A stretch of 64,000 nucleotides of DNA from Saprospiraceae bacterium (GTDB lineage Bacteria > Bacteroidota > Bacteroidia > Chitinophagales > Saprospiraceae), in contig JAHDGU010000001.1 in NCBI GenBank assembly GCA_020627535.1, positions 164,670 to 228,669 on the forward strand, given 5' to 3'. Below, piece by piece: positions 3,580 through 21,940 of the stretch; the first letter of the stretch is position 1; each line of letters begins with the position of its first letter. The notes beneath the pieces were generated by a model. That model did no database searches and was not told where the DNA came from. It saw only the letters and a list, made by a program, of their open reading frames with translations. A program made the position numbers and the translations under genes.

Positions 3580-3598
3580 CAACTACATGATGATGTGG
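3580..3598. promoter_or_regulatory. Dyad-symmetric box CAACTACATGATGATGTGG, candidate LuxR-type operator, 49 nt upstream of the beta-helix gene ATG
   Basis: Shares 17 nt with the box at 7136-7154 and its arms with the perfect palindrome at 3730-3747. Spacing and orientation relative to the downstream minus-strand start codon match the 7136 copy. Confidence 0.45.
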
Positions 3599-3645
3599 TG
3601 GTTGATGGTTCGTAGTTCAGAGTTCGTAGTTCAGAGTTCAGAGTT
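3595..3645. repeat. Degenerate heptanucleotide tandem array (7 units)
   Basis: GTGGTGG TTGATGG TTCGTAG TTCAGAG TTCGTAG TTCAGAG TTCAGAG. Includes an exact 14-mer CGTAGTTCAGAGTT twice (3611-3624, 3625-3638). Intergenic, between the divergent beta-helix and response-regulator genes. Confidence 0.8.
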
Positions 3646-3729
3646 TCTCCATGCCTGAAATACGTTGACCTTAATGGAAAATGGCTGATGAGACTTTGGA
3701 AAGAAACTCAATCACACAATCAGTCGCCG

Positions 3730-3747
3730 ACTACATGATCATGTAGT
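3730..3747. promoter_or_regulatory. Perfect 18-bp palindrome ACTACATGATCATGTAGT, candidate LuxR-type operator, 36 nt upstream of the response-regulator ATG
   Basis: Self-complementary by direct reading. Same arms (CTACATGAT / ATCATGTAG) as the boxes at 3580 and 7136. Confidence 0.5.
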
Positions 3748-3783
3748 TGCAGCTCGACTTGAAGCGCTGTACCTTGGTACTTC

Positions 3784-4425
3784 ATGGAAGAGATAGCCGT
3801 TGCCATTATAGAAGATGATCCCGTGATCAGAGCCAGCTTGGTCAAGAGTGTGGAAATGTATCCTGCGATGAATCTGGTCTTTGCCGCTGGAAGTGTAGAG
3901 GATGCCCTTGACCATTTGGATGACAATCCTTCTGACATCCCAGATGTGGTCATGATGGATATAGGTCTGCCTGGCATGGATGGCATCTCTGGGATACCAC
4001 AGGTCAAGGAACGTCTGGAGAAAACCAATATCATCATGCTCACCACCTATGAAGAGCAAGAAAAGATATTCGCGGCGCTCTGCGCTGGCGCCTGCTCCTA
4101 TATTTCTAAGCGTACATCTCTCAAGCAGATCATGGATGCCATCTTCACCGTGTATCGCGGAGGTAGTTACATGTCACCTTCTATAGCGCGCAAAGTCGTC
4201 GAGCACTTCAAGCCGATCCAAGCCGTCAATCATACGGAGAAGCTGTCAGATCGGCAACTTCAGATCGTCGAGCATCTCAGTGATGGCAAGAGCTACAAGG
4301 CGATCGCTGATGTGCTTAAGATCAGTATCGATACGGTAAGATTTCACATCAAGAAGATCTATAAGCTCCTTGAGGTCAACACCAAGCTGGATGTCATCAA
4401 TCTGTATCGAGATGGTAAGCTCTAG
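3784..4425 (+). CDS. NarL/FixJ-family response regulator (receiver + LuxR/GerE HTH)
   Basis: Receiver motifs IIEDDP...VVMMDIGLPGMDG...IIMLTTY, followed by the C-terminal HTH LSDRQLQIVEHLSDGKSYKAIADVLKISIDTVRFHIKKIYKLL. Confidence 0.9.
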   Translation: MEEIAVAIIEDDPVIRASLVKSVEMYPAMNLVFAAGSVEDALDHLDDNPSDIPDVVMMDIGLPGMDGISGIPQVKERLEKTNIIMLTTYEEQEKIFAALCAGACSYISKRTSLKQIMDAIFTVYRGGSYMSPSIARKVVEHFKPIQAVNHTEKLSDRQLQIVEHLSDGKSYKAIADVLKISIDTVRFHIKKIYKLLEVNTKLDVINLYRDGKL

Positions 4426-6755
4426 GGATTGACCAAGAAGCTAGCGGAGATTTTAAATCCTCCATCCATCTTATATTCAAAAGATCCACCGCACTCTTCG
4501 GCTCGTTGACGCATGCTTTGAAGACCAAGTCCAGAGGTCTTGATTTGTTGTGGATCTGGCTTGCCATTGTCTTGGATGGTCAGGTGTAGCATAGCACCTT
4601 CATCCTTGATTATGGCCTTGATTTCCGATCCGCCGCTGTGCTTAAGTGCATTGGTGATGGCTTCCTTGTAAACTAGATAGACGTTTTGTCGAGTCTTGGG
4701 ATGGATTTTCCTATGCTCTTTGAGCTTGCTTCTCAGGCTGATACTCTGATGGCTGAGATTGTCGCTCTCCGCGGTAAAGTCTCTCATGCGATCGATGAGA
4801 TCCGAGGTGTTGTCTTTGCGAGAGTCAATCGCCCAGACTGTGTCTCGCATGCTTTGCATGGCTTGACGGCTCATCTTGGCCAAGTTTTCTGTGGCTGCCT
4901 TGTCTTTTTCACTACTGAAGTCGTTGAGCAACTCTGACTGCATGGCTAGACCTGTCAGCGTGGAGCCGACCTCATCATGCAAGTCACGCGAGAGCTGAGA
5001 TCTGAACTGCTCTCTCTCTGATGCTCGTTGCTTATTGATGCGCTGTCTTTGGAGTTGATTTCCGAGATAAACCAGCAGCCCAAAGAATATCAGGGTGGCG
5101 ATCGTCAGCCAGCGCCATAGGCGTTTTTGACTACTTTCTTTTTGGCTCTGGAGCTCAAGACTGAGGATCTCCTTATCTTGCTCCGCGGTCTTATATTTGG
5201 TCTCCCACTCAGTGATGGCTTGCGTGCGCTCAGATCGATACATGCTATCGCGGAGTATAGCATAGTCTTCTAATGCTTGAGATTGGGCTCTGGGATTGTC
5301 ATAGCGCTTGTAGAAGCTACGCATAGTCTTGAGAGCGAGTAGCTGATTTTCCACATTGCCTTGCTCCTTGCTCATCGCATATGCCTGCTGCAGCTGCGCT
5401 TCGATTTCTGCCAGTGAGACAGGTACATTTTCAGTCTTGGCACTTTTATCACCGTCGCTTTGGTCGTATAGATCTGCGTAAAGCTCAGCCAGATTGATGA
5501 GGATCGCAGCTTGCTCGGGCTTCAGGCTAAGCTCGATGGAGGATGCCAGTGCATCTTGCAAGATCACATATGCTTCTTGGTGTCTCTCAAGAGAGATGAG
5601 ATCTTGACCAATTGCTTGATTGATTTCTAGAACGAGCTTTTTTTGCTGGAGTGGAGTTGCAAGTTTTTTGGCCTTGAGGTGAGATTGGAGTGCTTCGCTG
5701 TGTGCTGTCTGCGCCCGATGACAGTTGCCGATGCGTAGAGCATTGTATGCTTGTAAGAATTCATACGAGAGCTCTTCGGCTATTGCATTTGATAGACCAA
5801 AGCTCTCCATGGCCGACGGATAATCCTCCAGATCATACTTCACAGCGCCAATATTGTGATGCGCTAGCGCTGCACTACGTCGATTGCCTAGTCGCTCCTT
5901 GATCTCGAGGGACTGATAGTAGTACTGAAGTGCCTGGTCATACAGGCCTTGAGTGTGAGCTATATTCCCCAGATTATTAGTGACGACGGCAATCTGTGTT
6001 TCGTGATCGACCAGCATTGCAAGATCCAGTGCCTGGCGATAAGACTCGTATGCTTCTTCATATCTGCCAGCACTTCGATGGAGTCGCCCTTGTGTGCTGT
6101 ATGCTGAAGAGACCGCGGTAGTCATCTCATGCGACATCTCATTTGCACGAAAGTGCAGTGCTCGATCCAGTACCCCAAGTGCAGAATCAGGCTTACCATC
6201 ATCTCTGAGTTGCTGTGCTTGCTCTACAAGTGTGTAAATGATATTGGCGCTATCGTTAGTATTCCGATAGATCATTAAGGCAGAATCTGTCAGGCTTTGA
6301 GCCAAGGAGTGTTCTCCGCGCTCCTTGGCGAGCTCGCCAAGGCCCAAGAGAGCTTTGCCTTGGAATACTGTCAAGCCACTAGTACTTGCCATGTCGAACA
6401 AGACATAATACATCGACCCCGCCATCTCGACTTCTCCAAGCTGCACCAGTCGACCTGCCGAGAGGTGAGTCAATCTATGGGTACAGCTATCTCCCGTACA
6501 TTTTTTTCGGGCTTCCGCCAAAATGACCTCAAGGTCCTCTGGAAATCGAGTCTTGCCAATGAGTCTCGTGAGGGACTCTTCCACATTGACCACTTCTTCA
6601 TCTTGATATGCTGCCCAGTGATCCTTAAATGTGATTTGTCCTGGAGGCGCTTGTGCGTGAGTCACAGCCAGAAAAAACACCTGACAAAAAATGACGACAA
6701 CAAGATGCGCTGGTCGGAAGAGGGGTAATAGGAGAGTGACTTTTCTCCTGATCAT
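4422..6755 (-). CDS. Sensor histidine kinase: TPR-repeat sensor region, one TM, HisKA_3 + HATPase_c
   Basis: N-terminal signal/TM segment. About 450 aa of TPR-like repeats (YSTQGRLHRSAGRYEEAYESYRQALDLA and similar). TM WRWLTIATLIFFGLLVYLG. H-box LSRDLHDEVGSTLTGL. ATPase motifs KEAITNALKHSGG, DNGKP, GLGLQSM. Confidence 0.85.
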   Translation of the reverse strand: MIRRKVTLLLPLFRPAHLVVVIFCQVFFLAVTHAQAPPGQITFKDHWAAYQDEEVVNVEESLTRLIGKTRFPEDLEVILAEARKKCTGDSCTHRLTHLSAGRLVQLGEVEMAGSMYYVLFDMASTSGLTVFQGKALLGLGELAKERGEHSLAQSLTDSALMIYRNTNDSANIIYTLVEQAQQLRDDGKPDSALGVLDRALHFRANEMSHEMTTAVSSAYSTQGRLHRSAGRYEEAYESYRQALDLAMLVDHETQIAVVTNNLGNIAHTQGLYDQALQYYYQSLEIKERLGNRRSAALAHHNIGAVKYDLEDYPSAMESFGLSNAIAEELSYEFLQAYNALRIGNCHRAQTAHSEALQSHLKAKKLATPLQQKKLVLEINQAIGQDLISLERHQEAYVILQDALASSIELSLKPEQAAILINLAELYADLYDQSDGDKSAKTENVPVSLAEIEAQLQQAYAMSKEQGNVENQLLALKTMRSFYKRYDNPRAQSQALEDYAILRDSMYRSERTQAITEWETKYKTAEQDKEILSLELQSQKESSQKRLWRWLTIATLIFFGLLVYLGNQLQRQRINKQRASEREQFRSQLSRDLHDEVGSTLTGLAMQSELLNDFSSEKDKAATENLAKMSRQAMQSMRDTVWAIDSRKDNTSDLIDRMRDFTAESDNLSHQSISLRSKLKEHRKIHPKTRQNVYLVYKEAITNALKHSGGSEIKAIIKDEGAMLHLTIQDNGKPDPQQIKTSGLGLQSMRQRAEECGGSFEYKMDGGFKISASFLVNP

Positions 6756-6852
6756 AGGACTACTGGTTCAGACCTACAAGATAGTTTTATTATTTGGAGT
6801 GCGAAACGGTGTTCTTATTCCTCAATTGGCCAGCCCGATCCTGCGAAGGCGA

Positions 6853-7086
6853 CTATGAAGCCAAAGAATACTTCGCCAATAGATTTTGTAAAAGGGCTTC
6901 GCGTACGATGCCTGCCACATTGCGTACCTGTAGTTTTTGCATGATCTTCTTGCGATGCGACTTGACGGTCTCGTCACTGATGTAGAGTCTCTGTGCGATT
7001 TCCTTGGTGCTACACTCTTGGACAATGAGCTCAATCACCTCTGATTCTCTTGTGCTTAGGCGGGTTTCGTGATTTTGAATTCTCAT
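6853..7086 (-). CDS. Stand-alone LuxR/GerE-type HTH regulator (77 aa, no receiver domain)
   Basis: LSTRESEVIELIVQECSTKEIAQRLYISDETVKSHRKKIMQKLQV is a full GerE helix-turn-helix. ATG at 7084-7086. Confidence 0.75.
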   Translation of the reverse strand: MRIQNHETRLSTRESEVIELIVQECSTKEIAQRLYISDETVKSHRKKIMQKLQVRNVAGIVREALLQNLLAKYSLAS

Positions 7087-7135
7087 GGTGATTTTCTTTT
7101 CTCAGGATAAAGGTTTGATTCTCTGACTTGTCAAT

Positions 7136-7154
7136 CAACTACATGATGATGTAG
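7136..7154. promoter_or_regulatory. Dyad-symmetric box CAACTACATGATGATGTAG, candidate LuxR-type operator, 49 nt upstream of the LuxR-solo ATG and in the divergent region with the M36 protease gene
   Basis: Near-identical to 3580-3598, with the same 49-nt spacing to a minus-strand ATG. Confidence 0.45.
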
Positions 7155-7539
7155 CGAGCGCATCAGTCCTTGACGCATCTGACGCTGAAGTCTGCCCGAA
7201 GTGCGGTTGGGAAAAACTGTCTAATGTCAATCGTGTTGAAAACGGCGAATGGTGCAAGATAGATAGCACCAGGAGCATAGGTATGCCAATAGGACGCTAG
7301 TAAGAGATCTCCAAAGAGTCCTGAAACCTCCATCTCGGGTTATAAATCCAGAAGAGTCTGTTGCATTAGTTCTGGAATAGATTTGTCCAAAACTATCCTA
7401 GCCAAGTTCAGTTCATAAGAGCTTCTGATGCATCGATTCTCATGGTCAGACCGACGGTTTTTGAAGCATACATTTTATCCCCATCTATGTCTGTAGAGAG
7501 TCAAGAAAAAGCGGCATCTTGATGCTATCTTTAGAAGTA

Positions 7540-10068
7540 ATGAGATACGCTATTGTTGCTATTTTTCTTGCCTATTTTTCTGACCTCAGTGCTCAAGAAG
7601 AACTGCTTGTTCATCGACTCAATCAAGAGCTTGCTTCAGGAGTTTGCTCAGATTTGCAGTTTGAAGTTTCTTCCTATTACCAGAATTCCAAGAGCAAGAT
7701 CCAATACTTGTATGCCTATCCCTTTATTCAGGGCATACGAATTGCCAATCACCAAGTCCAGTTGGTCGCTGACGAAAAAGGGCAGTTGATTCACAGTCAT
7801 CTTCTCACGTGTGATTGGGATGATTCTCAGTCAGAGCATCTGAGAGGTATGGAAGAGTCTCTGTGGCAATATATCCAGTCGAAAGAGTATGATGTCGATC
7901 TGAGCGCGTATTCAGCTCAGCTTTCACAGGCCAAGTGGGAAGTTGAGAATCCCTCGGAGATCCTAGAGGAGATGCAGGCAGAAAAGGTCTATTATTTGAC
8001 ATCGACAGAAGTACGAGACTCAGACGGGTCTAGTTCTTTGCAATTTTCATTGAGAGCGGCCTACGAAATCCATATTCGTGAAAGCTCAGGAAATCACTGG
8101 TGGAACGCGATCGTGAGTGCTAGCGATGACGAAATTCTGCAAGATCAAGATCTTGTCTTGCACTGTGAGTTTCATCATGTCAAGGCTCCGAATCATGATT
8201 GTGGCCATGATCATTCAGAAAATCTTCAGGCGACGATCCCCAATTCATACAGAGTTCTACCCCTATATGTGGAATCACCATCACACGGTGATTTTACCTT
8301 GGAGGTGGATCCAGCAGATTTGGACGTAAGTCCCCTAGGATGGCATGATGACGGTACGACGAGCTACACGGATACACGGGGCAACAATGTGGACGCCTAC
8401 GAAGATCGAGATGCCAACAATGCTCCTGGATACAGACCAGATGGTGGAGCAGACCTTGAGTTTGATTTCTCTTTTGATCCCAATAGCCCTCCGATCAACA
8501 GTGAGGATGCGATTATCACCAATCTCTTTTATTGGAACAATCTGATGCATGATGTATGGTATCGATATGGTTTTGATGAGGCATCAGGAAACTTCCAAGA
8601 GGACAATTTCGGCAATGGCGGGATAGCAGGAGACTATGTAAGAGCAGAAGCTCAAGATGGATCCGGTACCAATAATGCCAACTTCAGCACACCGACAGAT
8701 GGTGGCAATCCTAGGATGCAGATGTTCCTCTGGACTGGCGTGGCCCAGCTCGAGATTACCAATCCTTCGAGCAGTGCAGGATTCTACAACTACAGCGCAG
8801 CAGGATTTGGCCCGTCAATCAATAGCAATATATCTGGTAACATCATCCTAGCATATGATGCCAATCCGGACAGTTCGCAAGCTTGTGGTGCAATTGTAAA
8901 TAGCGCGGAGGTCAATGGAAATATCGCCTTGGTAGATCGTGGAGCCTGCTTTTTCGAGACCAAGGTCAACAATTGTGAAGCTGCTGGTGCGATCGCTGTC
9001 ATTGTATGTAATAATCAGCCGGGTGCAGGGACATTCGGTATGGGAGGTGTGGATACGATACCTGACCCAGGCATTCCGTCTATAATGATCAGCTACGAGG
9101 ATTGTCAGACTATCCGGATGGATCTTGACAATGGACTGGCCGGGACGATTGAGAGTGAATCCATTGCTTTTGACTCGGATCTAGACAATGGGATTATCTG
9201 CCACGAATACGGGCATGGCATCAGTATACGTTTGACGGGTGGTGCGGGGACCAATAGCTGTCTAGGCTCTGCCGAGCAAATGGGTGAAGGCTGGTCAGAT
9301 TACTTCGGTCTTGTGATGTCCCAAAAGCCTGGTCATACTCACGATCTGCCTCGTGGTATCGGTACCTATGTGCTCGGGCAGGATACACTGGGATCTGGAA
9401 TCAGGCCGGCAGAGTACTGTACGGATTTTGCAGTGAATGACTTTACCTACGACGATATCGACCAGGTCTCTCAGCCACATGGTGTAGGATTTGTCTGGTG
9501 TACCATGATCTGGGATATGACATGGGCACTAGAGAACCACTACGGCTATGAGCCCGATATCTTCAATGATTCTAGTAGTGCTGGGAATATTGTTGCTTAT
9601 CACCTAGTAATGGAAGGACTAAGACTACAGGCATGCAATCCTGGATTTGTGGATGGAAGAGACGCTATATTGATGGCAGATTCGATTCTCTACAACAAGG
9701 AACACGAATGCATCATATGGAATGCGTTTGCACGACGTGGACTAGGCTTTAGTGCAGATCAAGGCTCAGCGAATAATCGGAGCGACGGGGCGGAAGCTTT
9801 TGACCTGCCAACTGGCTGTGATGCTTTGAGCTATGAGGAGCTATTTGTCATTGGTCCCAATCCTTGTGATGGCGACAATCTAGTAATTGAAGATCCCATC
9901 ACGATGGATTCTACTTACAGAGCCAAGTTTTTGATAGAGAGTAATGCCACCATCGGCTCTGGTCTAGATATTATCTATCAAGCTGGGCAGTCGATAGAGC
10001 TAGATACCAATTTTACGGTAACTACTGGTGCCTTGTTTGAGGCGAGGATCGATCCTTGTCAGGATTGA
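7540..10068 (+). CDS. Secreted fungalysin-like (MEROPS M36) zinc metalloprotease with an inserted PA domain
   Basis: Signal peptide MRYAIVAIFLAYFSDLSAQ from the ATG at 7540 (the track ORF begins at an upstream TTG at 7519). Zinc motif HEYGHGIS and downstream GEGWSDY as in fungalysins. PA domain IALVDRGACFFETKVNNCEAAGAIAVIV. The C-terminal approximately 90 aa (...AGQSIELDTNFTVTTGALFEARI) is not a classical T9SS tail. Confidence 0.8.
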   Translation: MRYAIVAIFLAYFSDLSAQEELLVHRLNQELASGVCSDLQFEVSSYYQNSKSKIQYLYAYPFIQGIRIANHQVQLVADEKGQLIHSHLLTCDWDDSQSEHLRGMEESLWQYIQSKEYDVDLSAYSAQLSQAKWEVENPSEILEEMQAEKVYYLTSTEVRDSDGSSSLQFSLRAAYEIHIRESSGNHWWNAIVSASDDEILQDQDLVLHCEFHHVKAPNHDCGHDHSENLQATIPNSYRVLPLYVESPSHGDFTLEVDPADLDVSPLGWHDDGTTSYTDTRGNNVDAYEDRDANNAPGYRPDGGADLEFDFSFDPNSPPINSEDAIITNLFYWNNLMHDVWYRYGFDEASGNFQEDNFGNGGIAGDYVRAEAQDGSGTNNANFSTPTDGGNPRMQMFLWTGVAQLEITNPSSSAGFYNYSAAGFGPSINSNISGNIILAYDANPDSSQACGAIVNSAEVNGNIALVDRGACFFETKVNNCEAAGAIAVIVCNNQPGAGTFGMGGVDTIPDPGIPSIMISYEDCQTIRMDLDNGLAGTIESESIAFDSDLDNGIICHEYGHGISIRLTGGAGTNSCLGSAEQMGEGWSDYFGLVMSQKPGHTHDLPRGIGTYVLGQDTLGSGIRPAEYCTDFAVNDFTYDDIDQVSQPHGVGFVWCTMIWDMTWALENHYGYEPDIFNDSSSAGNIVAYHLVMEGLRLQACNPGFVDGRDAILMADSILYNKEHECIIWNAFARRGLGFSADQGSANNRSDGAEAFDLPTGCDALSYEELFVIGPNPCDGDNLVIEDPITMDSTYRAKFLIESNATIGSGLDIIYQAGQSIELDTNFTVTTGALFEARIDPCQD

Positions 10069-10073
10069 GTATA

Positions 10074-10991
10074 TTATCTATAGAGTTCGAAAATACTCGC
10101 ATCCACCCAGTACAGATCTTGATCACTCGTGTAAAAAAAGTACTTACCATCCGGTGTCACGTAAGGACATAGTTCATGCTTGCTTGTATTGATGAGAGGA
10201 CCCATCGAAACGGCTTCAGACCAGAGGCGATCTTCATTTCTGAAGCTGATGTAGAGATCGCCTTGACCAGAGCCATCTCTCCGTATCGAGCAAAATATGA
10301 GATATGATTCATCAGGTGCCACAAACACATCTGCCTCATACCGCGCTGTATTGATACTGTCGCTCAGTCTCTCAGGTTTTAAAAACTTGTGTCCGTCCCA
10401 CTGGGAGCGATAAATATCCATCGCATAGCTGGGAGCCTCAGGTGCTAGATCTCGAGACGAAAAGTATAGGCTGCCATCACTGGTAAAAGAGCTGTAGTAT
10501 TGGTCAAGATGATTGTTGATAGGAGCACCAAGATTGATGGGATCGGACCAGTGATCTCCTTCTCTGGTAGCGTACCATAGATCGATATCACTTTGCCCCT
10601 CCTTGGCTTCCTTTGGACGATTAGAGATGAAATATAGCCGATCTTCTTGAGGAGAGAGCATCGGGTCATTGTGCCCAAAATTTTCCAGAGCAAAAAGCTG
10701 AGTTTCTTCAGACCAACTGCCTTGAGAAAATCTCCGATGATATATTTCAGTCACACCGTTATTGTCTACGCCGAAGTAGAGGTCTTCTCCATTTTTCGAA
10801 ATGGTGCAGCCAAATTCATATCGATCAGGTAACGAGATGATTCCTGGGGCAAATATCATAGGGGTATCACGTGGAGCAATTTGACCTAAGTATTTTACCT
10901 TCTCTGTTTTGTTATTTTGCTGGACTTGATCTTGACAGCACAATGTTGCTATCATGCCTAGAATTAAAAGAAGGAATAGAGCAACTCTCAT
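10074..10991 (-). CDS. Secreted TolB-like PD40/WD40 beta-propeller repeat protein
   Basis: Signal peptide MRVALFLLLILGMIATLC. Repeated ...DxxPxxSPDGxxLYFxS...-type blades (DPMLSPQEDRLYFISNR, SSFTSDGSLYFSSRD, DVFVAPDESYLIFCS, CPYVTPDGKYFFYTSD). Confidence 0.7.
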   Translation of the reverse strand: MRVALFLLLILGMIATLCCQDQVQQNNKTEKVKYLGQIAPRDTPMIFAPGIISLPDRYEFGCTISKNGEDLYFGVDNNGVTEIYHRRFSQGSWSEETQLFALENFGHNDPMLSPQEDRLYFISNRPKEAKEGQSDIDLWYATREGDHWSDPINLGAPINNHLDQYYSSFTSDGSLYFSSRDLAPEAPSYAMDIYRSQWDGHKFLKPERLSDSINTARYEADVFVAPDESYLIFCSIRRDGSGQGDLYISFRNEDRLWSEAVSMGPLINTSKHELCPYVTPDGKYFFYTSDQDLYWVDASIFELYR

Positions 10992-11003
10992 CTTGGTTTT
11001 GAT

Positions 11004-12164
11004 TTATATTGCAGCAAAGCCCCTCTCCAAATCCTCAATAATCACCTTCACATCCTCCAGCCCAATACTCAAGCGATACAGATTCCAAGGATGCTGCTCC
11101 TCTGCTGGTGCAGACGCATCCCAGAAGGTCACCAGCGGTATGATCAAGGATTCATATCCTCCCCAGCTCACAGCAATCCGAATGTGCTCGAGGGCATCAG
11201 CAAATGCTTCTGCCTCCTCTCGCGTGCCTAGTTGAAGCTCAAAGCTGAAGAGTCCTGTGCTTCCAGACATTTGCTGGCAGGCGAGATCATACTGAGGATG
11301 AGAGGAATGTCCTAGATGGTGCACCGCAGATACCTTCTCATGAGATACAAGGTAGTCTACCACCTTCTCAGTTGTTTCTTGTATCCTTTTCATACGCACA
11401 GGCAAGGTCCTGAGTCCTCTCAGGATCAGACTCGCGTCATGAGGCGACATCACTGCACCAAATGTCATATAGCCCTTGTAGAAGATGTGATCAATGAGCT
11501 CCTTGGATCCCATCACTGCTCCAGCGACCACATCGCTATGACCTGCAATGTACTTGCTGATGCTATGCGTCACAAGATCCACGCCAAGCTCTGCAGGATT
11601 TTGGAAGAGTGGAGTAGCATAGCTATTATCGAGCGTAGTGAGAATGTCATTTTTTTTGGCCCAGTCACAGGCAGCCTTGATGTCTTGCAGATGGAAGTAC
11701 ATGCTATTGGGGCTCTCGAGGATCAGCATGCGTGTGTGATCAGTCTTCGCCGCCATGATTTCTTCCATAGATCGGCCATCGACGAAGCTATGGCTTACGC
11801 CAAAATCCTCAAGAATATTGATCAATAGCTTATTGGTCCATGAGTATGCTCCTTTGACACAAATCACATGGTCACCCGCCTTCAGAAAACTGCAAATCGT
11901 CGCACTGATCGCAGCGATTCCACTGCTGAAGACTAGACAGGACTCCGTCTTCTCCAGAGCGGCAAGTTTTTGACACAATAGCACCTGACTGGGATTGTTC
12001 CCTCTGGTGTAGAGTGTACTATCCGCTTCCGCTAAAAAAGCCAGTCGAAAACTCTCGACACTGTCAAAAGCAAAGTTGCTCGTCTGGTAGATTGGCGGTA
12101 CGATGCTGCCATACGGATCAAGTGCATTTTCCTTAGGATCAAAGAGGCCGGACATAAGATTCAT
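11004..12164 (-). CDS. PLP-dependent trans-sulfuration family enzyme (cystathionine beta-lyase / gamma-synthase / methionine gamma-lyase type)
   Basis: Cys/Met-metabolism PLP fold. Schiff-base lysine context THSISKYIAGHSDVVAG. YTRGNNPS near the N-terminus. Substrate specificity cannot be resolved by eye. Confidence 0.8.
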   Translation of the reverse strand: MNLMSGLFDPKENALDPYGSIVPPIYQTSNFAFDSVESFRLAFLAEADSTLYTRGNNPSQVLLCQKLAALEKTESCLVFSSGIAAISATICSFLKAGDHVICVKGAYSWTNKLLINILEDFGVSHSFVDGRSMEEIMAAKTDHTRMLILESPNSMYFHLQDIKAACDWAKKNDILTTLDNSYATPLFQNPAELGVDLVTHSISKYIAGHSDVVAGAVMGSKELIDHIFYKGYMTFGAVMSPHDASLILRGLRTLPVRMKRIQETTEKVVDYLVSHEKVSAVHHLGHSSHPQYDLACQQMSGSTGLFSFELQLGTREEAEAFADALEHIRIAVSWGGYESLIIPLVTFWDASAPAEEQHPWNLYRLSIGLEDVKVIIEDLERGFAAI

Positions 12165-12201
12165 ATTGTGGAACCTAAATCTAGCAGATTCTCAGGGAAG
12201 G

Positions 12202-12257
12202 GGTGTTGGTTGATAGTTAAGGGTTTCGTGAACCGAGGACCGTGAACCGTGGACCGA
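12202..12257. repeat. Degenerate heptanucleotide tandem array (8 units)
   Basis: GGTGTTG GTTGATA GTTAAGG GTTTCGT GAACCGA GGACCGT GAACCGT GGACCGA. Lies about 40 nt upstream of the start of the 11004-12164 gene. Confidence 0.75.
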
Positions 12258-12524
12258 AGTGATGTTTGCTGAGCGCGCCCGCCTGCCTTTGGTAGGTCTC
12301 GCTAGAGCTTTATGCGTCCTCGTACTGAGAAGGATGAACTGGAGTTGGAACTTGGGACAAACCGTTTCTCGAGTGAGCTAGTCAATCGATGCACAAATTC
12401 ATAAAAGCAATGAATCTCTGCAAAAGCCCTAGAATTCAACGAAGCCAAAGCCCAGCGTATAGCATGCAAGAGGTACGATCAAAAAGCTGCTCTGCGAACG
12501 AACAATCGTGGCACGAATAATAAA

Positions 12525-12594
12525 CAACTGTCACCTGTCAACTATCAACTGTCAACCGCTCGACGGTTTACGGTCCACGGTTCACGGTAAACCT
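12525..12594. repeat. Degenerate heptanucleotide tandem array (10 units)
   Basis: CAACTGT CACCTGT CAACTAT CAACTGT CAACCGC TCGACGG TTTACGG TCCACGG TTCACGG TAAACCT. Ends 3 nt before the GH9 stop codon (12598-12600). Confidence 0.8.
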
Positions 12595-12597
12595 CCC

Positions 12598-15294
12598 TCA
12601 CTCCACCTTCACGATCTTCTGCACACAAAGTGCACTATTGCCAGGGTCATACACCTTCACGAAGAACAATCCATTGCCCAGTAGTTCTGTATTGATATTG
12701 ACCTCTGTTCCTACATTGGGGAGCTCTTGGATGAGTGTACCACTCGCATCCAGTATTTGAAGTCGATATGATGGAAGATCTCCTTGGATCCTGAAGTAGT
12801 TGTCCACAGGATTGGGGAAGACTTCGATGCAGCTAATTGTCGCCTCTATCTGTCTCGAACTGGTAGCAACTTCACTGCAATCATAATCTCCACTGAGTGC
12901 ACCGTAGACGACAGCTGCTGTGACACTGTTTTGGTTGATGGTAAACTCGCCGGTGAGAGGACTTGGGCGCTGTTCGAAGAATCGCTCATGTCCTGGCCAC
13001 TCTTCGATGGCAGGATATACATTTTGATCAGGCCAGTGATGCTCCCAGGGACCGACATTGAAGAGTCCTCCACGTCTCCATGGACCATATGGTACAATAC
13101 CGGCTTTGATTTCGCCTTCTCCCGTAGCCCAGCTATCGAGATGCAGCAGACCTTGAGGGCTTTTTTCGCCGATACCAGTGATCCAAGTCATACCTAGAGG
13201 ATTGGTCCCGAGGAAGTAGTCTGCCGTAGTGTGTATGTACTTGAGGTAGTCAGCTGCCTTGGTAGGATCAGTGCCTTGCAGTATGGCGGACATAAACACT
13301 GCTTCCGCGACAAATGGCGTCGTGCCGTGCCCTACGAGCATAGGGAAGTAGTGGTTCCCTCCCCAGCGACAAGCGCGGAGATCAACATTGTCAAGAATAA
13401 GGAAATCCGCAGTCTGTATCATTTTGTCGCTGACGATCGTGCGTTGACTGGCATCTTGGTTGTCTGCATCGGTCATGAGGTAGATCAGAGCACCGTAGGC
13501 CTGCTCACCTTGGACATTTTCCCAAAACTCGAGCCCCGCCTGATCCCAGCTCTGCTCAAAATCTTGCTGATAGAAATCATTTTCTGTGAGTCTGTAGAGA
13601 GCCGCGGAGGCGAAGCTTCGCTGCCAGATCATCTCGTAGATATGACAAGCAAAGTCAGGGTCATATTGCGCATTGGCCCAGGCATATGCATCGATGGCTT
13701 CTTGCTCCCAGTCGATCTCCTCCGGATCAGTCCAGCCATTAGTCTCTAGGAGGTAGGCGATCTGCGCGGCCACGCCTGCGTAGTAGTAGCTCATGATCGG
13801 ATCAGGAGCGGATACGACCCAGATGCGATCTGTATCTTCCCAGCTGCCTCGGATAATATCATCATCGCCGAGATCGTAGCCCCAGAGATCACCAAATATC
13901 CGTCCACCTGGCACACCTCCTGTCGTGTAGCCTTTCTCCTCTGTTTCTTGCTTGAGATGATAGTAGAATCTCGGCAACCATCTCGCTTCATCAAAGACAT
14001 CTGGTAGTCCATTGCCACTCTCTGCGATCTGTAGCTGGCCATCGACGAAGTTGTCTCCGTACAACTCTAGCAGTATCAGTAGCTCCACAGGGACTTCCAT
14101 ATGTCTGATGTACGCGTCCCAGTCGCCAGCGTCCTGGTACCACCCAGCAGTCTCGATATCTCCGAGGATGCCAGCATCCCAAGTGGCCTTGTCATCCTCT
14201 GAGGCATCCTCGTCTGTCACATCGCAGATAGATACGTCACTATACTTCAGCTGCCCTGCAAATCCGGGTGTCACAGCAGGATTGTGTGGCGCTGGACGTG
14301 TGGCTTCCGTGTGCGGATGATCCAGAGCAATTCCACTGCGCTGATTGTAGAGGCCCTTCATCACCAGTTCGAATGCAGGCCTGAGACCATTGCAAGCAAG
14401 GTCAAACTCATGAGATCTGCCGATACCATCAACCACGAGGTAGTAGGATCCAGGCGTATTGTAAGCACTAAAATCACACTCGTATACCTCAGCACTATTG
14501 AAATTTTGATTCGGGGTTTCATCGCTATCATCGACAAATGTCTCTTGCGTCATCTCATCCTTGCGAAAAGTCAGATTTCCTGTGAAGACTGCATCGCCTG
14601 ATGTCGCATCGATAAGACGAAATTCATTGCCAGCGTAGCTGCTAAGATCCAACTTGCCGCCGTCTCCCATCCAATGATATACGTAGGCATACTTGAGCTC
14701 TGCATTGGTAGAGTAGGCTAGATTGTTGACGTGTATAGCAGGAGAAAGGAAGCTGTTTTCATCATATTTTAAGATCCATTCTGTCTGATCTGGACTGATG
14801 GCTTGATCTATGTTGATCTCGTAGGTCTTACCCGGTTCTAGTGCAATAGGTAGCTCCAGATACAGCCAGTGTTCCTTGGCATGATCAGGCTCTTGATTGG
14901 CACATCCCCAGACACCATAGTAGTCCAGGAGCTCCCAGCCTTGACACACATCTAGGAATTCTGTAGGCTTGCTTTTTCGCGAAAGCGATACTGGACTCTC
15001 CCCACTGCCATAAGCTGCATCATCAGGCGAACTGATCATGTAATTGTTGAGGTCTTCGGCAATGGGTATATCCAGCAGATCTACGAAGATCTCTCCACTA
15101 TTTTTAGGTTCACCGGCTTTGGGCTGTAACACATAGCCTTCATCGACATGGATCAAGAGGATCTTATCTGTGAGCATGGTCAGCTCCACCTCACTTTGGG
15201 CCATGATCTGGTCGGTCAGGCAGGTCAATAGGATAAGGACTAGAGCAGATTGTAGGACTTTCATTGTTGCAAATGATTTGAACTTCACTTGCAT
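12598..15294 (-). CDS. Secreted glycoside hydrolase family 9-like endoglucanase with a T9SS type-A C-terminal sorting domain
   Basis: Signal peptide (an alternative start at 15264 gives MKVLQSALVLILLTCLTDQIMAQ). N-terminal Ig-like region. GH9-type motifs AGWYQDAGDWDAY and ...GEFTINQNS.... The last approximately 80 aa, FPNPVDNYFRIQG...LFFVKVYD..., is a Por/T9SS tail. Confidence 0.7.
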   Translation of the reverse strand: MQVKFKSFATMKVLQSALVLILLTCLTDQIMAQSEVELTMLTDKILLIHVDEGYVLQPKAGEPKNSGEIFVDLLDIPIAEDLNNYMISSPDDAAYGSGESPVSLSRKSKPTEFLDVCQGWELLDYYGVWGCANQEPDHAKEHWLYLELPIALEPGKTYEINIDQAISPDQTEWILKYDENSFLSPAIHVNNLAYSTNAELKYAYVYHWMGDGGKLDLSSYAGNEFRLIDATSGDAVFTGNLTFRKDEMTQETFVDDSDETPNQNFNSAEVYECDFSAYNTPGSYYLVVDGIGRSHEFDLACNGLRPAFELVMKGLYNQRSGIALDHPHTEATRPAPHNPAVTPGFAGQLKYSDVSICDVTDEDASEDDKATWDAGILGDIETAGWYQDAGDWDAYIRHMEVPVELLILLELYGDNFVDGQLQIAESGNGLPDVFDEARWLPRFYYHLKQETEEKGYTTGGVPGGRIFGDLWGYDLGDDDIIRGSWEDTDRIWVVSAPDPIMSYYYAGVAAQIAYLLETNGWTDPEEIDWEQEAIDAYAWANAQYDPDFACHIYEMIWQRSFASAALYRLTENDFYQQDFEQSWDQAGLEFWENVQGEQAYGALIYLMTDADNQDASQRTIVSDKMIQTADFLILDNVDLRACRWGGNHYFPMLVGHGTTPFVAEAVFMSAILQGTDPTKAADYLKYIHTTADYFLGTNPLGMTWITGIGEKSPQGLLHLDSWATGEGEIKAGIVPYGPWRRGGLFNVGPWEHHWPDQNVYPAIEEWPGHERFFEQRPSPLTGEFTINQNSVTAAVVYGALSGDYDCSEVATSSRQIEATISCIEVFPNPVDNYFRIQGDLPSYRLQILDASGTLIQELPNVGTEVNINTELLGNGLFFVKVYDPGNSALCVQKIVKVE

Positions 15295-15406
15295 GACGCA
15301 TTGCTCAGATCATACCCTACGACAAGTCAGGAAAGATTTATTTTTTGATGGAGACCTTGCCTCAAGGATTGATCTAGGCAAAGTAAAACTGCGAAAATGC
15401 TCTGGG

Positions 15407-15958
15407 TTATTTTCCGTGATTCGCCTGCCAGTCTTTGACAATCTGTGGTGGCTCTTCTCCTTCCGCGACAAAGATGAGTGACGCAGAATTCATACAGTAT
15501 CTCAAGCCTGTGGGCTCTGGCCCATCTTTGAAGACATGCCCCAGATGAGATCCACTTCCGCTATCCACTACTTCTATCCTGACCATACCGTAGCTTTTAT
15601 CGACGACCTCGACTACGGCATCTTCCTCAATCGGCTCGTAAAAACTTGGCCAACCAGTACCTGAGCGAAATTTCGTCTCTGAGCTGAATAAGGGCTGACC
15701 AGTGGCAGCAGAGTAGTAAATGCCTTTCTTCTTATTGTCCCAATACTCACCTGTGAATGCACGCTCAGTACCATGCTTGCGCAAAATGTAAAACTGCTCA
15801 TCCGTCAGCTGTTGCTTCCACTCTTCATCCGTCTTTTGGACTGGGTAGTTTGTATGATCATCAGACGAAGTGCTTTTTGTCTGACAAGACACGGGTAAGA
15901 ATGCAAGACAAAGACCAAGAACCAGTGAAAATCTCATAATACGCTTGTTTGACATCAT
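15407..15958 (-). CDS. msrB: Peptide-methionine (R)-S-oxide reductase MsrB, exported/lipoprotein form
   Basis: [20 protein letters not shown] and [21 protein letters not shown] are MsrB hallmarks. The likely start is [26 protein letters not shown] (lipobox-like). The track ORF extends to 16039 through an unlikely N-terminal extension. Confidence 0.9.
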
Positions 15959-16057
15959 AATTCGAAAAACCAAGTTTTTGTTGTCCAGTCCCATGGTAGC
16001 ACCAAGACAAAGTCTCCAATCTATCCATGCTTCGGTCAACGTATTTCAGGTATGGAG

Positions 16058-16120
16058 AAACTATCAACTATCAACCAACAACCAACAACCAGTCCACGGT
16101 CTACGGTCCTCGGTTGACGA
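16058..16120. repeat. Degenerate heptanucleotide tandem array (9 units)
   Basis: AAACTAT CAACTAT CAACCAA CAACCAA CAACCAG TCCACGG TCTACGG TCCTCGG TTGACGA. Lies between the divergent msrB and tail-fibre-like genes. Confidence 0.8.
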
Positions 16121-16196
16121 AACCAAATACCGAACTCGGGGGATTGCGCCCATCTGATTCCACTCAGTTCTTTGCGTCATAAATCAAAGCTACACT

Positions 16197-18485
16197 ATGA
16201 TGTATTCTAGATTCAATCTCATTCTTGCCTTATCACTCTTGACCATTGGCCTTTCTGCACAGGCTATCGACGACGCTGAGATCCGTGGTGACGGTATCGT
16301 CGTGCCTGCTGTGGATCGGCTGGCGGTCGTTGCCCCATCCACTGGTCAGCTCGTCTTCGATGTCAATACGCTCAGCTACTGGATGCACGATGGTAATGTG
16401 TGGCGGGCTGTAGGAGACAATATTGTCGGTAACATGATTCAAGACGCGGATGGAAGCACCAGTGTGCAGACAGAACCTGGCGGACTAGAGCAAGTCCTGA
16501 TCGAGGTCGATGGTCGAGATCGGTGGAGGTTTTTGGGACATGCGCTAGAGCCTCTCATTCCCAGTAGTTCCATATTCATGGGACAGTCAGCAGGTGCCGC
16601 TAGTTCTGATACAGCTTACAACAATGTCGGCATCGGAAATTTCTCGCTGATCTCGGTCAGCTCAGGAAGATGGAATGTAGGCATCGGCCATAATGCCCTG
16701 AGCGACAATACATCAGGAGAAAAAAATGTTGCCATCGGTTCTTCCGCAATGCTTGGCAACAAGGCGAGCTCCGACAATGTCGCCATAGGTAATAGTGCAT
16801 TACTCTCGGTCGACTCCTCACAGTTCAATGTCGCTATCGGCTCTTATGGACTCCATAGCCTAGACAAAGGTCTTCGCAATGTAGCCATCGGAACCTCTAG
16901 CCTCTATGAATCCGAGACAGGAAAGCTCAACACCTCCATCGGCTATGCTGCAGGACACAATACCCTCGGAGATGGCAATGTATTTCTCGGCCACGAGGCT
17001 GGTTTCAATGAACTAGGAAGTAACAAACTCTACATCGCCAACTCCAATGCCGATAGCGCCGATGCGCTGATCTACGGTGACTTTTCCAGTTCTGAACTCT
17101 ACATCAATGGAGATCTGCAGTCTGATCAGTTCACCACAGATCAGATCACGACCACTACCATAGACGTCGACGACAAACTCACCGTCAAGAGCGACTCTCG
17201 CCTGTTTGGTCATCTCTTTCTACACGCCCTCCAGGGCCTAGGGCAAAGTGGCACAGCCTATATCCAAGCCAGAGATCACACTGCTGCTACGAGTGTTGGT
17301 CTACAGTTTCGCGTGACGGACAATGGTGTGGTTGATGACGCCCTCGCGATCAATAAAGATGGTCAAGTCCTGTTTCAGAACAAGGAGATCTACTTCGGTA
17401 CGAGTCTCTTGATTCACACCACAGGTAGCAACAACTTCTTTGCAGGATTTGCTGCTGCCCCTTCAGCCTCGGGTTCCTCCAATACAGCGGTCGGTTCGCA
17501 AGCAGCTCAGAGCCTTTCTACGGGCTCTCAGAATTCAGCAATCGGCCGGCTTGCAGGTCAGGACCTCTCCAGCGGATTTGGAAATACACTATTGGGTTTT
17601 TCTGCGGGTAAAGACTTGACGACCACGACTGGCAACACCATGATCGGTAACAATGCAGGTGCTTCGATCAATAACGGGGGCTCCAATACCATCATCGGTA
17701 GCCAAGCAGGATGGAACACCAGCTTTTCGTCAAGCAACACCTTCATAGGATTTGATGCGGGCAGGTACACCGCTGGAAGCAAAAACACATTCCTTGGGAC
17801 CAATGCTGGTGAGACCACTTCTGGTGGTCCCAGCTACGATAATAGCATAGCTATCGGATACAGTGCTGTGGCCAATTGCCATAACTGTGCAGTGATCGGC
17901 AATGATGGATCAGAGGATGTTAATCTCGGTATCGGTATCTCGGCTCCTCAGTCCGTCATCCATGTCAAGCAGCGCAACTCAGGCACAGATCGCGGTATCC
18001 GTATAGAAGACACCGATGGGACATACTGGAATACCTACATCGACGCATCTAATGATTACAACTTCGCTCACGACGGCACACTTCGTGCTTACATACAGGA
18101 TGGTGCTGGTGCCTTTGTCATCACTTCTGATCGCAGCGTCAAGACAGCCATCAGCTCTGTCGGAGACGTATTGCCACGGGTGATGGGGCTTTCGCCCAAA
18201 TGGTACAGATACAACAACATGTCACCCGATCAACCCAAGGTCATGGGCTTCATCGCACAAGAAGTGGAGGAGCAGTTTCCTGGCATCGTACGCCAAAAAG
18301 GAAAGCTCAAGACCCTCGCATACGATGACTTTGCCATCATCAGCATCAAAGCCATCCAAGAACTCAATGACAAGGTCAACGAAAAGGATTCAAGGATCAC
18401 AGAACTAGAAGAGCAAAATGAGGAATTGGCCAAGCGACTAGAGAGATTGGAAGCGTTGGTACTCAGTGATCCATTGACTGACTAA
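16197..18485 (+). CDS. Tail-fibre-domain protein: signal peptide, two blocks of GxxNxAIG-type repeats, C-terminal S74-type intramolecular chaperone domain and coiled coil
   Basis: MMYSRFNLILALSLLTIGLSAQA. Repeats NVGIGNFSL / NVGIGHNAL / NVAIGSSAM / NVAIGNSAL / NVAIGSYGL / NVAIGTSSL, then LYIANS...LIYGDF. The C-terminus SDRSVKTAISSVGDVLPRVMGLSPKWYRYNN...MGFIAQEVEEQFPGIV...LAYDDFAIISIKAIQEL resembles the phage endosialidase/tail-spike chaperone (Peptidase_S74) domain. Confidence 0.75.
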   Translation: MMYSRFNLILALSLLTIGLSAQAIDDAEIRGDGIVVPAVDRLAVVAPSTGQLVFDVNTLSYWMHDGNVWRAVGDNIVGNMIQDADGSTSVQTEPGGLEQVLIEVDGRDRWRFLGHALEPLIPSSSIFMGQSAGAASSDTAYNNVGIGNFSLISVSSGRWNVGIGHNALSDNTSGEKNVAIGSSAMLGNKASSDNVAIGNSALLSVDSSQFNVAIGSYGLHSLDKGLRNVAIGTSSLYESETGKLNTSIGYAAGHNTLGDGNVFLGHEAGFNELGSNKLYIANSNADSADALIYGDFSSSELYINGDLQSDQFTTDQITTTTIDVDDKLTVKSDSRLFGHLFLHALQGLGQSGTAYIQARDHTAATSVGLQFRVTDNGVVDDALAINKDGQVLFQNKEIYFGTSLLIHTTGSNNFFAGFAAAPSASGSSNTAVGSQAAQSLSTGSQNSAIGRLAGQDLSSGFGNTLLGFSAGKDLTTTTGNTMIGNNAGASINNGGSNTIIGSQAGWNTSFSSSNTFIGFDAGRYTAGSKNTFLGTNAGETTSGGPSYDNSIAIGYSAVANCHNCAVIGNDGSEDVNLGIGISAPQSVIHVKQRNSGTDRGIRIEDTDGTYWNTYIDASNDYNFAHDGTLRAYIQDGAGAFVITSDRSVKTAISSVGDVLPRVMGLSPKWYRYNNMSPDQPKVMGFIAQEVEEQFPGIVRQKGKLKTLAYDDFAIISIKAIQELNDKVNEKDSRITELEEQNEELAKRLERLEALVLSDPLTD

Positions 18486-18677
18486 GTGATACTTCTCGCG
18501 CGCGTTCCTTTTTTCTTGCTGTGCCTGTCTACCTCTGGCAGGCGCGTCCCCGCGCCAGCCACTGCGAGGCAAGTCCCTCATGTCAAGAGGGATTTAGGGA
18601 GTTCTCACTACACAGTTTTCAGCCAGCAAGGAACCCACCCAAACGCCCTCAAGAAAAAGGGCTTACACCAATTTTTC

Positions 18678-18765
18678 TATCAACGCCCAACTCCCAATCA
18701 GTCCTGAATTCACGGTCCACGGTTCTCGGTCCACGGCTCACGTCCTCGCTCTCCAGTCCACAGTC
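18678..18765. repeat. Degenerate heptanucleotide tandem array (about 12 units)
   Basis: ...TATCAAC GCCCAAC TCCCAAT CAGTCCT GAATTCA CGGTCCA CGGTTCT CGGTCCA CGGCTCA CGTCCTC GCTCTCC AGTCCAC AGTC. Lies in the convergent gap between the tail-fibre-like gene and the histidine kinase. Confidence 0.75.
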
Positions 18766-18804
18766 TTGATAGCTATCGGGAACGATTTACGACCGTCAGC
18801 CATG

Positions 18805-21837: not shown

Positions 21838-21915
21838 GCTGTAAGAAGCGGTGTGAAGATATAGTGCAGTTCCCAATCACCCCATCTCGGTATGGTGTCC
21901 GCGCTAGAGAAGCTC

Positions 21916-21923
21916 TACATTTG
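21916..21923 (+). promoter_or_regulatory. Candidate Bacteroidota -7 promoter box TACATTTG (consensus TAnnTTTG)
   Basis: Exact match to TAnnTTTG, 17 nt upstream of the ATG at 21941. Confidence 0.4.
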
Positions 21924-21940
21924 AAACTGAATATCTCCAG

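Follow-up and report, generated by a model that had tools for sequence, protein, structure and literature searches.

In many bacterial genomes, no long simple repeats are as over-represented as heptanucleotides, whose origin and function have been a puzzle for more than 30 years. A 64,000-nucleotide (nt) stretch of DNA from a Saprospiraceae bacterium (NCBI GenBank assembly GCA_020627535.1, contig JAHDGU010000001.1, positions 164,670 to 228,669 of the forward strand), hereafter called the window, raises this question in a compact form, since five gaps between genes at its left end carry tandem arrays with a period of 7 nt. A preliminary description had assigned these arrays to two unit families. 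Do the arrays stand up to scrutiny, do they comprise one family or two, and did they grow where they are found or reach their gaps by copying? The arrays prove genuine, lie between genes and share one unit family. Single and double units were duplicated as they grew, and parts of arrays, along with bordering sequence outside the repeats, were copied from one nearby gap to another, with their order permuted.

At the five loci, which are designated here by the start coordinates of the preliminary description (3595, 12202, 12525, 16058 and 18678; arrays 1 to 5), identity at a lag of 7 nt amounted to 0.75, 0.63, 0.68, 0.71 and 0.54, respectively (binomial P per locus from 1e-7 to 6e-12), compared with 0.13–0.33 at lags of 5, 6, 8 and 9 nt. 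When sliding 28-nt windows (lag identity of at least 0.68) were compared with themselves across the full 64 kb, period 7 emerged at four of the five loci, 12202 being added at the looser settings of 35 and 42 nt. No setting returned period 7 anywhere else in the 64 kb; periods of 4–6, 8, 10, 11 and 13 nt gave zero regions in the same scan, and no period-7 region arose in 30 first-order Markov shuffles. According to Tandem Repeats Finder, each of the five loci holds period-7 or period-14 repeats, with indels at 0%. The period-7 autocorrelation and repeat finding that the preliminary description had suggested as a check thus recovered, in the window, every array it had listed, and its statement that there is no comparable array between 19 and 64 kb held as well; at 18678, the left part (18678–18700) is barely periodic. 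As the definition of long simple sequence repeats (5–11 nt unit) asks, the tandem repeats are longer than expected by chance.

All five arrays lie between called genes, and the neighbourhood that had been described for them—the start of a beta-helix gene, the stop codon of a GH9 gene, and both ends of a tail-fibre-like gene—agrees with the gene calls. The short open reading frames (ORFs) in the array gaps are devoid of a coding signature, none is credible, and a separate set of gene calls places no gene there; the idea that the gaps code for small proteins was therefore rejected. By hand count from ORF lists, four of the six gaps longer than 100 nt between 1 and 19 kb bear arrays, versus none of at least seven gaps longer than 250 nt between 19 and 64 kb (Fisher's exact P ~0.02 for left-end clustering, own arithmetic).

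The presumed two families, a "CAAC" block and an "ACGG" block, are the same degenerate heptamer, SRACYNN, seen from either strand, with the CAAC block corresponding to SAACYNN and the ACGG block, on the other strand, to GRACCGT. Three successive units (SRACYNN x3) match the window exactly ten times, with 0.02 matches expected, and all ten are inside the five loci; with one mismatch allowed, this applies to 20 of 21 matches (1.09 expected in all). The families are, thus, not independent, and 3595 holds only one unit orientation. The arrangement at 12202, previously read as complemented blocks kept in the same order, turns out to be a permutation of two modules, M2–M1, compared with M1–M2 at 16058. 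By a second route, the two blocks may also be related in direct orientation through CAACGGT-like intermediates; CAACGGT, CCACGGT, CTACGGT, CAACTGT and CAACAGT are mixed in phase in metagenome arrays, among the matches listed. The layout of arms, modules and neighbouring genes is compiled in Table 1.

Table 1. Arrays, modules and gene context in the window; positions count from its first nucleotide, and array architectures are based on the strands of SRACYNN matches.
Feature	Position	Strand	Content, architecture and context
Array 1	3590..3649	-	~8 SRACYNN units, - only: TCTGAAC TCTGAAC TACGAAC TCTGAAC TACGAAC CATCAAC ...; unidirectional, every unit on - strand
Array 1 (3595), context			59 nt upstream of the start of a 1353-aa beta-helix gene (Chlam_PMP, faint match); gap divergent with GerE-type response regulator
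29-nt non-repeat flank GGTCAACGTATTTCAGGCATGGAGAAACT	3642..3670	-	Immediately 5' of array 1
Array 2 (12202), overall			- arm then + arm, divergent; 35 nt upstream of Cys/Met-lyase start
Array 2, degenerate arm	12204..12225	-	AACTATC AACCAAC on - strand; 15/15 identical to 16066-16080
20-nt end module GGTCCTCGGTTCACGAAACC	12222..12241	-	Same module at 16105-16124 (+)
Array 2, well-kept arm	12227..12256	+	GAACCGA GGACCGT GAACCGT GGACCG
Unique spacer core	12257..12524	.	268 nt between arrays 2 and 3
Array 3 (12525), overall			+ arm then - arm, convergent inverted; 3 nt after GH9 stop codon (12598-12600; GH9 sense = - strand)
Array 3, left arm	12525..12557	+	CAACTGT CACCTGT CAACTAT CAACTGT CAACC
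Array 3, right arm	12563..12594	-	GAACCGT GGACCGT AAACCGT on - strand
Array 4 (16058), overall			+ arm then - arm, convergent inverted; divergent gap between MsrB and Peptidase_S74 "tail-fibre domain" gene
29-nt flank, second copy GGTCAACGTATTTCAGGTATGGAGAAACT	16034..16062	+	Adjoins array 4
Array 4, left arm	16058..16090	+	AACTATC AACTATC AACCAAC AACCAAC AACC
Array 4, right arm	16091..16124	-	GGACCGT AGACCGT GGAC on - strand, plus 20-nt end module 16105-16124
Array 5 (18678), overall			+ arm then - arm, convergent inverted; convergent gap between S74 gene and HisKA_3 kinase
Array 5, weak left arm	18683..18703	+	CAACGCC CAACTCC CAATCAG
Array 5, right arm	18700..18766	-	GAGCCGT GGACCGA GAACCGT GGACCGT GAA on - strand; decayed tail 18743-18766

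Growth within the arrays is recorded in their double units. Tandem Repeats Finder detected a perfect 14-nt double unit (2.3 copies, 100% match) at 3608–3639, and perfect or near-perfect 14-nt periods also at 12227 and 18709, which indicates that two-unit blocks were duplicated after the units had diverged, a signature of slippage or unequal exchange. Copying between the gaps is evident from what the loci have in common. The 29-mer GGTCAACGTATTTCAGGYATGGAGAAACT abuts arrays 1 and 4 and the 20-mer GGTCCTCGGTTSACGAAACC ends arrays 2 and 4 (two window matches each, zero expected), and arrays 2 and 3 have an exact 18-mer in common (zero expected). Module M1 (AACTATC AACCAAC) and module M2 (CCACGGT..CCTCGGTTSACGAAACC) follow each other as M1–M2 at 16058 on the + strand and as M2–M1 at 12202 on the - strand, with 15/15 and 30/33 positions matching. 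Since sequence outside the repeats recurs in permuted order, independent slippage is insufficient as an explanation; arrays plus flanks were copied as modules between neighbouring gaps and have not merely grown in place. Neither the window nor any of the fetched loci contained another copy of the 268-nt core that separates arrays 2 and 3, the remaining spacer sequence is also unique, and the 29-mer flank gave no exact match in the metagenome collection.

The gain of the arrays can be dated by comparison with relatives. Two of these follow the conserved order Band_7 – 175 aa – Aminotran_3 – CCP_MauG – FtsX – TyrRS – (GH9) – lyase – M36 – SMC, their lyase being 64% identical to that of the window, and the nearest relatives overall reach 59–64% protein identity. 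The block from Band_7 to TyrRS is retained in the window at 23–33 kb; compared with the relatives, genes for PhzF, a response regulator, a kinase, S74 and MsrB lie between TyrRS and GH9, PD40 is situated between lyase and M36, and a two-component system together with the beta-helix gene takes the place of SMC. One relative, GCA_020630495.1, keeps the S74–kinase–regulator module, with a gap of 222 nt between S74 and kinase (319 nt in the window) and of 65 nt between GH9 and lyase (433 nt in the window). Neither a period-7 array nor an SRACYNN x3 match was found in the relatives (~47 kb; L122, L125 and L331 in our locus numbering). This comparison of orthologous gaps, which the preliminary description had recommended, thus revealed shorter gaps devoid of period-7 arrays in the nearest available relatives, so that the arrays are a gain of this lineage, or an expansion within it from no recognisable precursor; judged by the gaps compared, they are lineage-specific. 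Two further assemblies, from two sequencing runs (L001 and L126), are 100% identical to the window; they represent the same strain and, hence, carry no information on polymorphism.

The same comparison bears on two other ideas. That the arrays travel with the S74 "tail-fibre" gene as a cassette was rejected, because the orthologue with 59% identity, still next to its kinase and regulator genes, has no arrays. An interpretation as rearrangement scars is weakened, since, of the four gaps with arrays, two (GH9–lyase and S74–kinase) correspond to junctions that are conserved in a relative. For the same reason, the attribute "accessory-looking" given to the array-bearing region is only partly apt; the restriction of the arrays to the left part of the window holds. 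Among named homologues, those closest to the Cys/Met lyase are proteins from Saprospiraceae/Bacteroidota metagenome-assembled genomes (MAGs; ~50% identity), and several window proteins carry a Por_Secre_tail domain of the type IX secretion system. The relatives L122 (13670–14629) and L125 (9195–9773) possess, upstream of SMC, 2–4 copies of the intergenic palindrome TACATTTTACNGTAAAATGTA, which is absent from the window; different lineages appear to carry different intergenic repeat families.

Beyond this family, a scan for CGGTYCACGGTYCACGG with one genome per species returned at least 120 loci, the matches listed being from Saprospiraceae, Bacteroidales, Algoriphagus, Pyrinomonadaceae and other Acidobacteriota, Gemmatimonadota, Opitutales, Desulfobacterales, and Chloroflexota. 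In the flanks of the listed loci, 102 further period-7 arrays of many unit types were present, along with four of period 8 and eight of period 9; genomes with (GGTTCAC)n are, by this count, rich in period-7 arrays in general. Arrays at these loci are mostly outside long ORFs (25–33% inside versus ~80% background), and, among the matches listed, (ACGGTYC)n arrays are most often accompanied by their own reverse complement. Inverted pairs were situated between convergent ORFs at 9 of 13 assessable loci, mostly in Pyrinomonadaceae and with crude ORF calling in high-GC DNA. Related (GGTTCAC)n and (CAACGGT)n arrays, frequently in inverted pairs, are present in many phyla, a hint that quasi-palindromic heptamer arrays may be a general intergenic element. 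In Bacteroidales UBA4073 (L045) and Algoriphagus (L056), CCGTGAA/GTGGACC blocks adjoin CAACCAT/CAACTAT/AACTGCC blocks; a metagenome scan for a bipartite CAAC...CGGT pattern yielded, among the matches listed, mostly homogeneous (CAACGGT)n and is, hence, uninformative on block adjacency. In a viral-contig control with 17-mers, (GGTTCAC) occurred at 41 loci and (GGTCAAC) at 15, versus 2, 10 and 16 for three permuted units. This amounts to a modest preference at most, and a uniquely favoured heptamer across bacteria was rejected; the phenomenon is one of 7-nt arrays in general, not of one special motif.

Several of the foreign loci deserve mention in their own right. A REP-like hairpin family with heptamer-array stems, CCGTGAACCGTGAACCGTAAACCGTGACAAG – loop – CTTGTCACGGTTTACGGTTCACGGTTCACGG, occurs in Pyrinomonadaceae and other Acidobacteriota, mostly between convergent ORFs (L007, L008, L010, L016, L029, L041, L043, L074, L092, L102, L106, L107 and L116). 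A second conserved hairpin on metagenome contigs has (CAACYGA)n – loop – (CGGTTGT)n arms flanked by CCAATGNAAAACYGA and TTTGAAATTTGAAATTG (L128, L130, L134, L145, L152, L153, L166, L189, L192, L216, L218, L219, L222 and L225). On the Saprospiraceae chromosome OZ245751.1 (L012, 6002–6455), a near-perfect (GGCTGAC)n array of ~60 units adjoins (GGTTTGA)n and (CCGTGAA)n, which implies that some Saprospiraceae carry large heptamer satellites. In the Algoriphagus MAG (L056, 301–717), a higher-order tandem of ~130 bp contains, in each copy, a (GTGGACY)n block followed by an (AACTGCC)n block, and this repeat is a possible model for the origin of the permuted M1/M2 modules.

Taken together, we consider it probable, though well short of assured, that the window carries slippage-born heptanucleotide arrays built from one degenerate unit, copied locally between gaps, gained in this lineage, and mostly passive, with possible hairpins at transcript ends. 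Growth would have proceeded via slipped-strand mispairing or unequal exchange, the explanation that has been proposed for the general bacterial excess of 7-nt repeats, and the spread between gaps may have involved recombination or template switching between arrays. The arrays would then be largely passive spacer DNA, in which inverted arms could form imperfect hairpins in DNA or RNA and, thereby, transcript-end or insulating structures. The most plausible cases would be the hairpin and U-run following the GH9 stop codon and the array in the convergent gap between S74 and the kinase gene. On the sense (-) strand, the arms of array 3 are predicted to form a mismatched hairpin of -22.4 kcal/mol directly after the GH9 stop, which is followed by the U-rich run UUGUUUAUUAUU. 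A scan for sigma-70 promoters and intrinsic terminators, unsuited as it is to Bacteroidota promoters, returned fewer sites than in shuffles and none at the arrays.

Several points weigh against this interpretation. Five arrays within 19 kb and none in the following 45 kb, with its at least seven gaps of more than 250 nt, is a clustering that simple genome-wide slippage would not predict. Degenerate units would be expected to slip poorly, making present-day dynamism conjectural, and the three assemblies are identical, albeit of one strain. Two arrays are located in divergent promoter gaps, where a terminator role is senseless; folding of arrays 3595 and 18678 does not surpass that of shuffles on any strand, and that of 12202 surpasses it only weakly. 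The enrichment in convergent gaps rests mostly on one high-GC family, the Pyrinomonadaceae, with crude ORF calling, and a passive origin and a weak regulatory role are inseparable by sequence alone.

A regulatory role in cis was considered in its own right, with the arrays serving as regulator binding sites or as a spacing rheostat in the promoter or 5' untranslated region of the adjacent surface or secreted genes. The model for this is hmwA of Haemophilus influenzae, where (ATCTTTC)n between the P2 and P1 promoters tunes expression through unit number, the one experimentally understood role of such repeats and, thus, an experimental precedent for heptanucleotides in promoters (PMC8262952); moreover, for TAACTGA repeats close to gene starts, a function as sites for a regulator has been put forward (PMC4679880). 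Like the 7-nt repeats at hmwA, which precede large surface-protein genes (PMC8262952), arrays 3595 and 16058 are positioned 59–73 nt upstream of large secreted-protein genes (Chlam_PMP-like and Peptidase_S74), where their common 29-nt upstream flank has the same orientation relative to both genes, and three HisKA_3/GerE two-component systems are encoded within 22 kb. However, the array positions are heterogeneous, with one following a stop codon and one in a convergent gap, and the orthologous genes in the relatives have no arrays. While the hmwA repeats are perfect, comprise 13–24 units, and vary demonstrably in unit number with an effect on expression (PMC8262952), the units here are degenerate with a longest perfect tract of ~3 units, whereby switching by slippage would be inefficient, and no length variation is seen among the three identical assemblies of the one strain. 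A better operator candidate near LuxR-type regulators is the palindrome ACTACATGATSATGTAGT, present three times. We, thus, regard cis-regulation as unlikely to be the explanation of the arrays.

Alternatively, the arrays might be terminal inverted repeats or remnants of a non-autonomous mobile element of the MITE or REPIN kind, with the transposase encoded elsewhere in the genome. The spacer between GH9 and lyase is insertion-like (433 versus 65 nt), its arms at 12227–12256 and 12557–12586 being 87% complementary over 30 nt (one 18-mer at 100%) around the 268-nt core; flanks are common to several loci, and other phyla commonly possess REP-like hairpin families whose stems are heptamer arrays and whose apices are conserved. 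Inverted arms around ~300 nt, as expected of a MITE, are, however, confined to this one locus. No target-site duplication is recognisable there, no direct repeat flanks the two arms, the core has the single copy noted above, and the metagenome collection held no exact match of the 29-mer flank; furthermore, the five loci differ in architecture (unidirectional, convergent, divergent), and transposase, RAYT and integrase domains are absent from the Pfam tables for the window proteins. A mobile element is, consequently, an improbable source of these arrays.

A bolder variant of mobility extends to distant phyla. The arrays of the SRACYNN/ACGGTYC type might, instead of being independent products of slippage, trace back to a copy-and-paste process not yet described, either REPIN/RAYT-like or a templated addition of repeats, that places inverted heptamer arrays in the gaps of Bacteroidota, Acidobacteriota, Gemmatimonadota and Verrucomicrobiota as mobile, often bidirectional transcript-end hairpins. 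If so, the window would represent a recent local burst of such insertions; we hold this to be quite a long shot.

The folding of the arrays speaks mainly to RNA-based explanations. On both strands of the five loci, z-scores ranged from -2.84 to +2.26 with the favoured strand differing between loci, which led to the rejection of a uniform RNA hairpin or G-U wobble hairpin. That the arrays are transcribed into a structured non-coding RNA or riboswitch-like family is very improbable, because the better-than-shuffled folds of single strands at 12525 (+, z = -2.05) and 16058 (-, -25.3 kcal/mol, z = -2.84) and of the whole 433-nt GH9–lyase spacer with its long-range stem joining arrays 2 and 3 (z = -2.87) are set against two loci that fold worse than shuffles, stems that consist of nothing but the paired repeat arms, interrupted by a mismatch at 7-nt intervals, the lack of a homologous element conserved in the relatives, and the absence of any Rfam match even at E<=1. 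With no Rfam match at gathering score over the 64 kb, nor at E<=1 over 1–20 kb, a known non-coding RNA family was rejected; likewise, integron attC sites were rejected, as the arms misfit RYYYAAC/GTTRRRY and no integrase is found in the Pfam tables of the window.

How do the arrays relate to heptamer repeats that are already known? Strict membership in the STRRs fails on host and unit sequence, whereas in behaviour the arrays are like that class. The STRR units CCCCAGT, TTGGTCA and CAACAGT, which Mazel and colleagues reportedly described in 1990, are not matched by SRACYNN; the CAACTGT units of the window agree in 6 of 7 positions with CAACAGT, said to be one of these, and CAACAGT, CAACTGT and CAACGGT are mixed within single arrays on metagenome contigs among the matches listed. 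The host is a Bacteroidota (Saprospiraceae-like) MAG and not a heterocystous cyanobacterium, and its arrays are short (7–12 units), strongly degenerate, and mostly in inverted pairs. STRRs number about a hundred or more dispersed copies per genome; the 64 kb covered here, out of a 551-kb contig, contain five arrays. In common with cyanobacterial STRRs—7-bp repeats with hairpin potential and unexplained function (PMC2670836)—they consist of non-coding 7-nt tandem units with mixed variants per array and hairpin potential. By analogy, they are probably best placed in the class of non-coding heptanucleotide tandem arrays, called STRR in cyanobacteria and 7-nt long simple sequence repeats elsewhere. 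The label "STRR-like" of the preliminary description, thus, names the right class for 7-nt, degenerate, intergenic, mixed-unit and sometimes hairpin-capable arrays (PMC2670836, PMC4692102).

Heptamers are the most abundant class of long simple sequence repeats in many bacteria, an abundance attributed tentatively to slippage of the polymerase (Mrazek 2007, in the summaries of PMC4679880 and PMC4692102). The window arrays correspond to this class in the 7-nt unit, the length beyond chance, the intergenic position and the proposed slippage origin; in contrast to that statistical class of mostly near-perfect repeats, they are old or degenerate and have flanks common to loci. The earlier remark that nothing equivalent has been described in Bacteroidota proved wrong, as MacGregor 2015 (PMC4679880) reported TAACTGA and "other heptamer direct repeats" between the genes of five Bacteroidetes, besides Beggiatoaceae and Cyanobacteria; close relatives lack these repeats in the corresponding gaps, and a role in gene rearrangement or regulation has been suggested. 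Those repeats are likewise intergenic and of mixed heptamers, and the window arrays resemble them in their absence from the corresponding gaps of close relatives. However, the unit differs from TAACTGA, the tandem TAACTGATAACTGA is absent from both strands of the window, and the arrays here have an inverted-arm layout and are not concentrated just upstream of gene starts.

Several heptanucleotide element families are also known from Geobacter metallireducens, and the GGGAATC/GGGGAYT arrays of Xanthomonas and Nostoc (Rehm et al. 2015, PMC4692102) are similarly heterogeneous, (GGGANTN)n, and intergenic. Those of Xanthomonas sometimes form convergent inverted pairs and are variable between species; the arrays have stem-loop or cruciform potential and differ in length and sequence among related species (PMC4692102). 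They are, however, G-rich and form G-quadruplexes, while the units of the window have GG doublets only. The REP, BIME and REPIN elements of Proteobacteria are comparable as intergenic imperfect palindromes, often at 3' ends of genes, with mosaics of modules in varied order and orientation; unlike the window arrays, REPs are not tandem heptamers, and of the RAYT transposase and the hundreds of dispersed copies typical of such elements, neither was seen in the window and its Pfam tables. Heptamer intergenic repeats are, thus, already known from cyanobacteria, Xanthomonas and some Bacteroidetes, to which the window adds a new example. It is a clean case from an uncultured Saprospiraceae-like lineage, in which apparently "different" unit families reduce to one heptamer in two orientations; the window data alone reveal no new mechanism.

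Besides the arrays, regulator genes interleaved with genes of secreted proteins (Chlam_PMP-like, M36, GH9, S74) were noted within 22 kb of the window. Two pairs of HisKA_3 kinase and GerE response regulator are located at 3784–6755 and 18805–22570, together with a stand-alone 77-aa GerE protein at ~6.8–7.4 kb. The 18-nt palindrome ACTACATGATSATGTAGT has three copies (3582–3599, 3730–3747 and 7138–7155; 0.01 expected), all in gaps adjoining GerE/LuxR-type genes, namely the response regulator at 3784–4425 and the small GerE protein near 7.1 kb, and two of these copies bracket array 1. From its sequence, it looks like a lux-box-type operator candidate that is unrelated to the heptamer arrays.

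Coding tandem repeats were noted at two places in the window, with a 66-nt unit repeated 3.2 times at 31868–32076 within the Band_7 protein gene, and lysine/glutamate-rich units of 24/48 nt at 54819–55034 within a 339-aa ORF without a Pfam match. Among housekeeping genes, at 36640–37845 on the - strand, a gene encodes a 401-aa protein in which HD and PycTM (Pycsar effector) domains occur together, a possible component of anti-phage defence.

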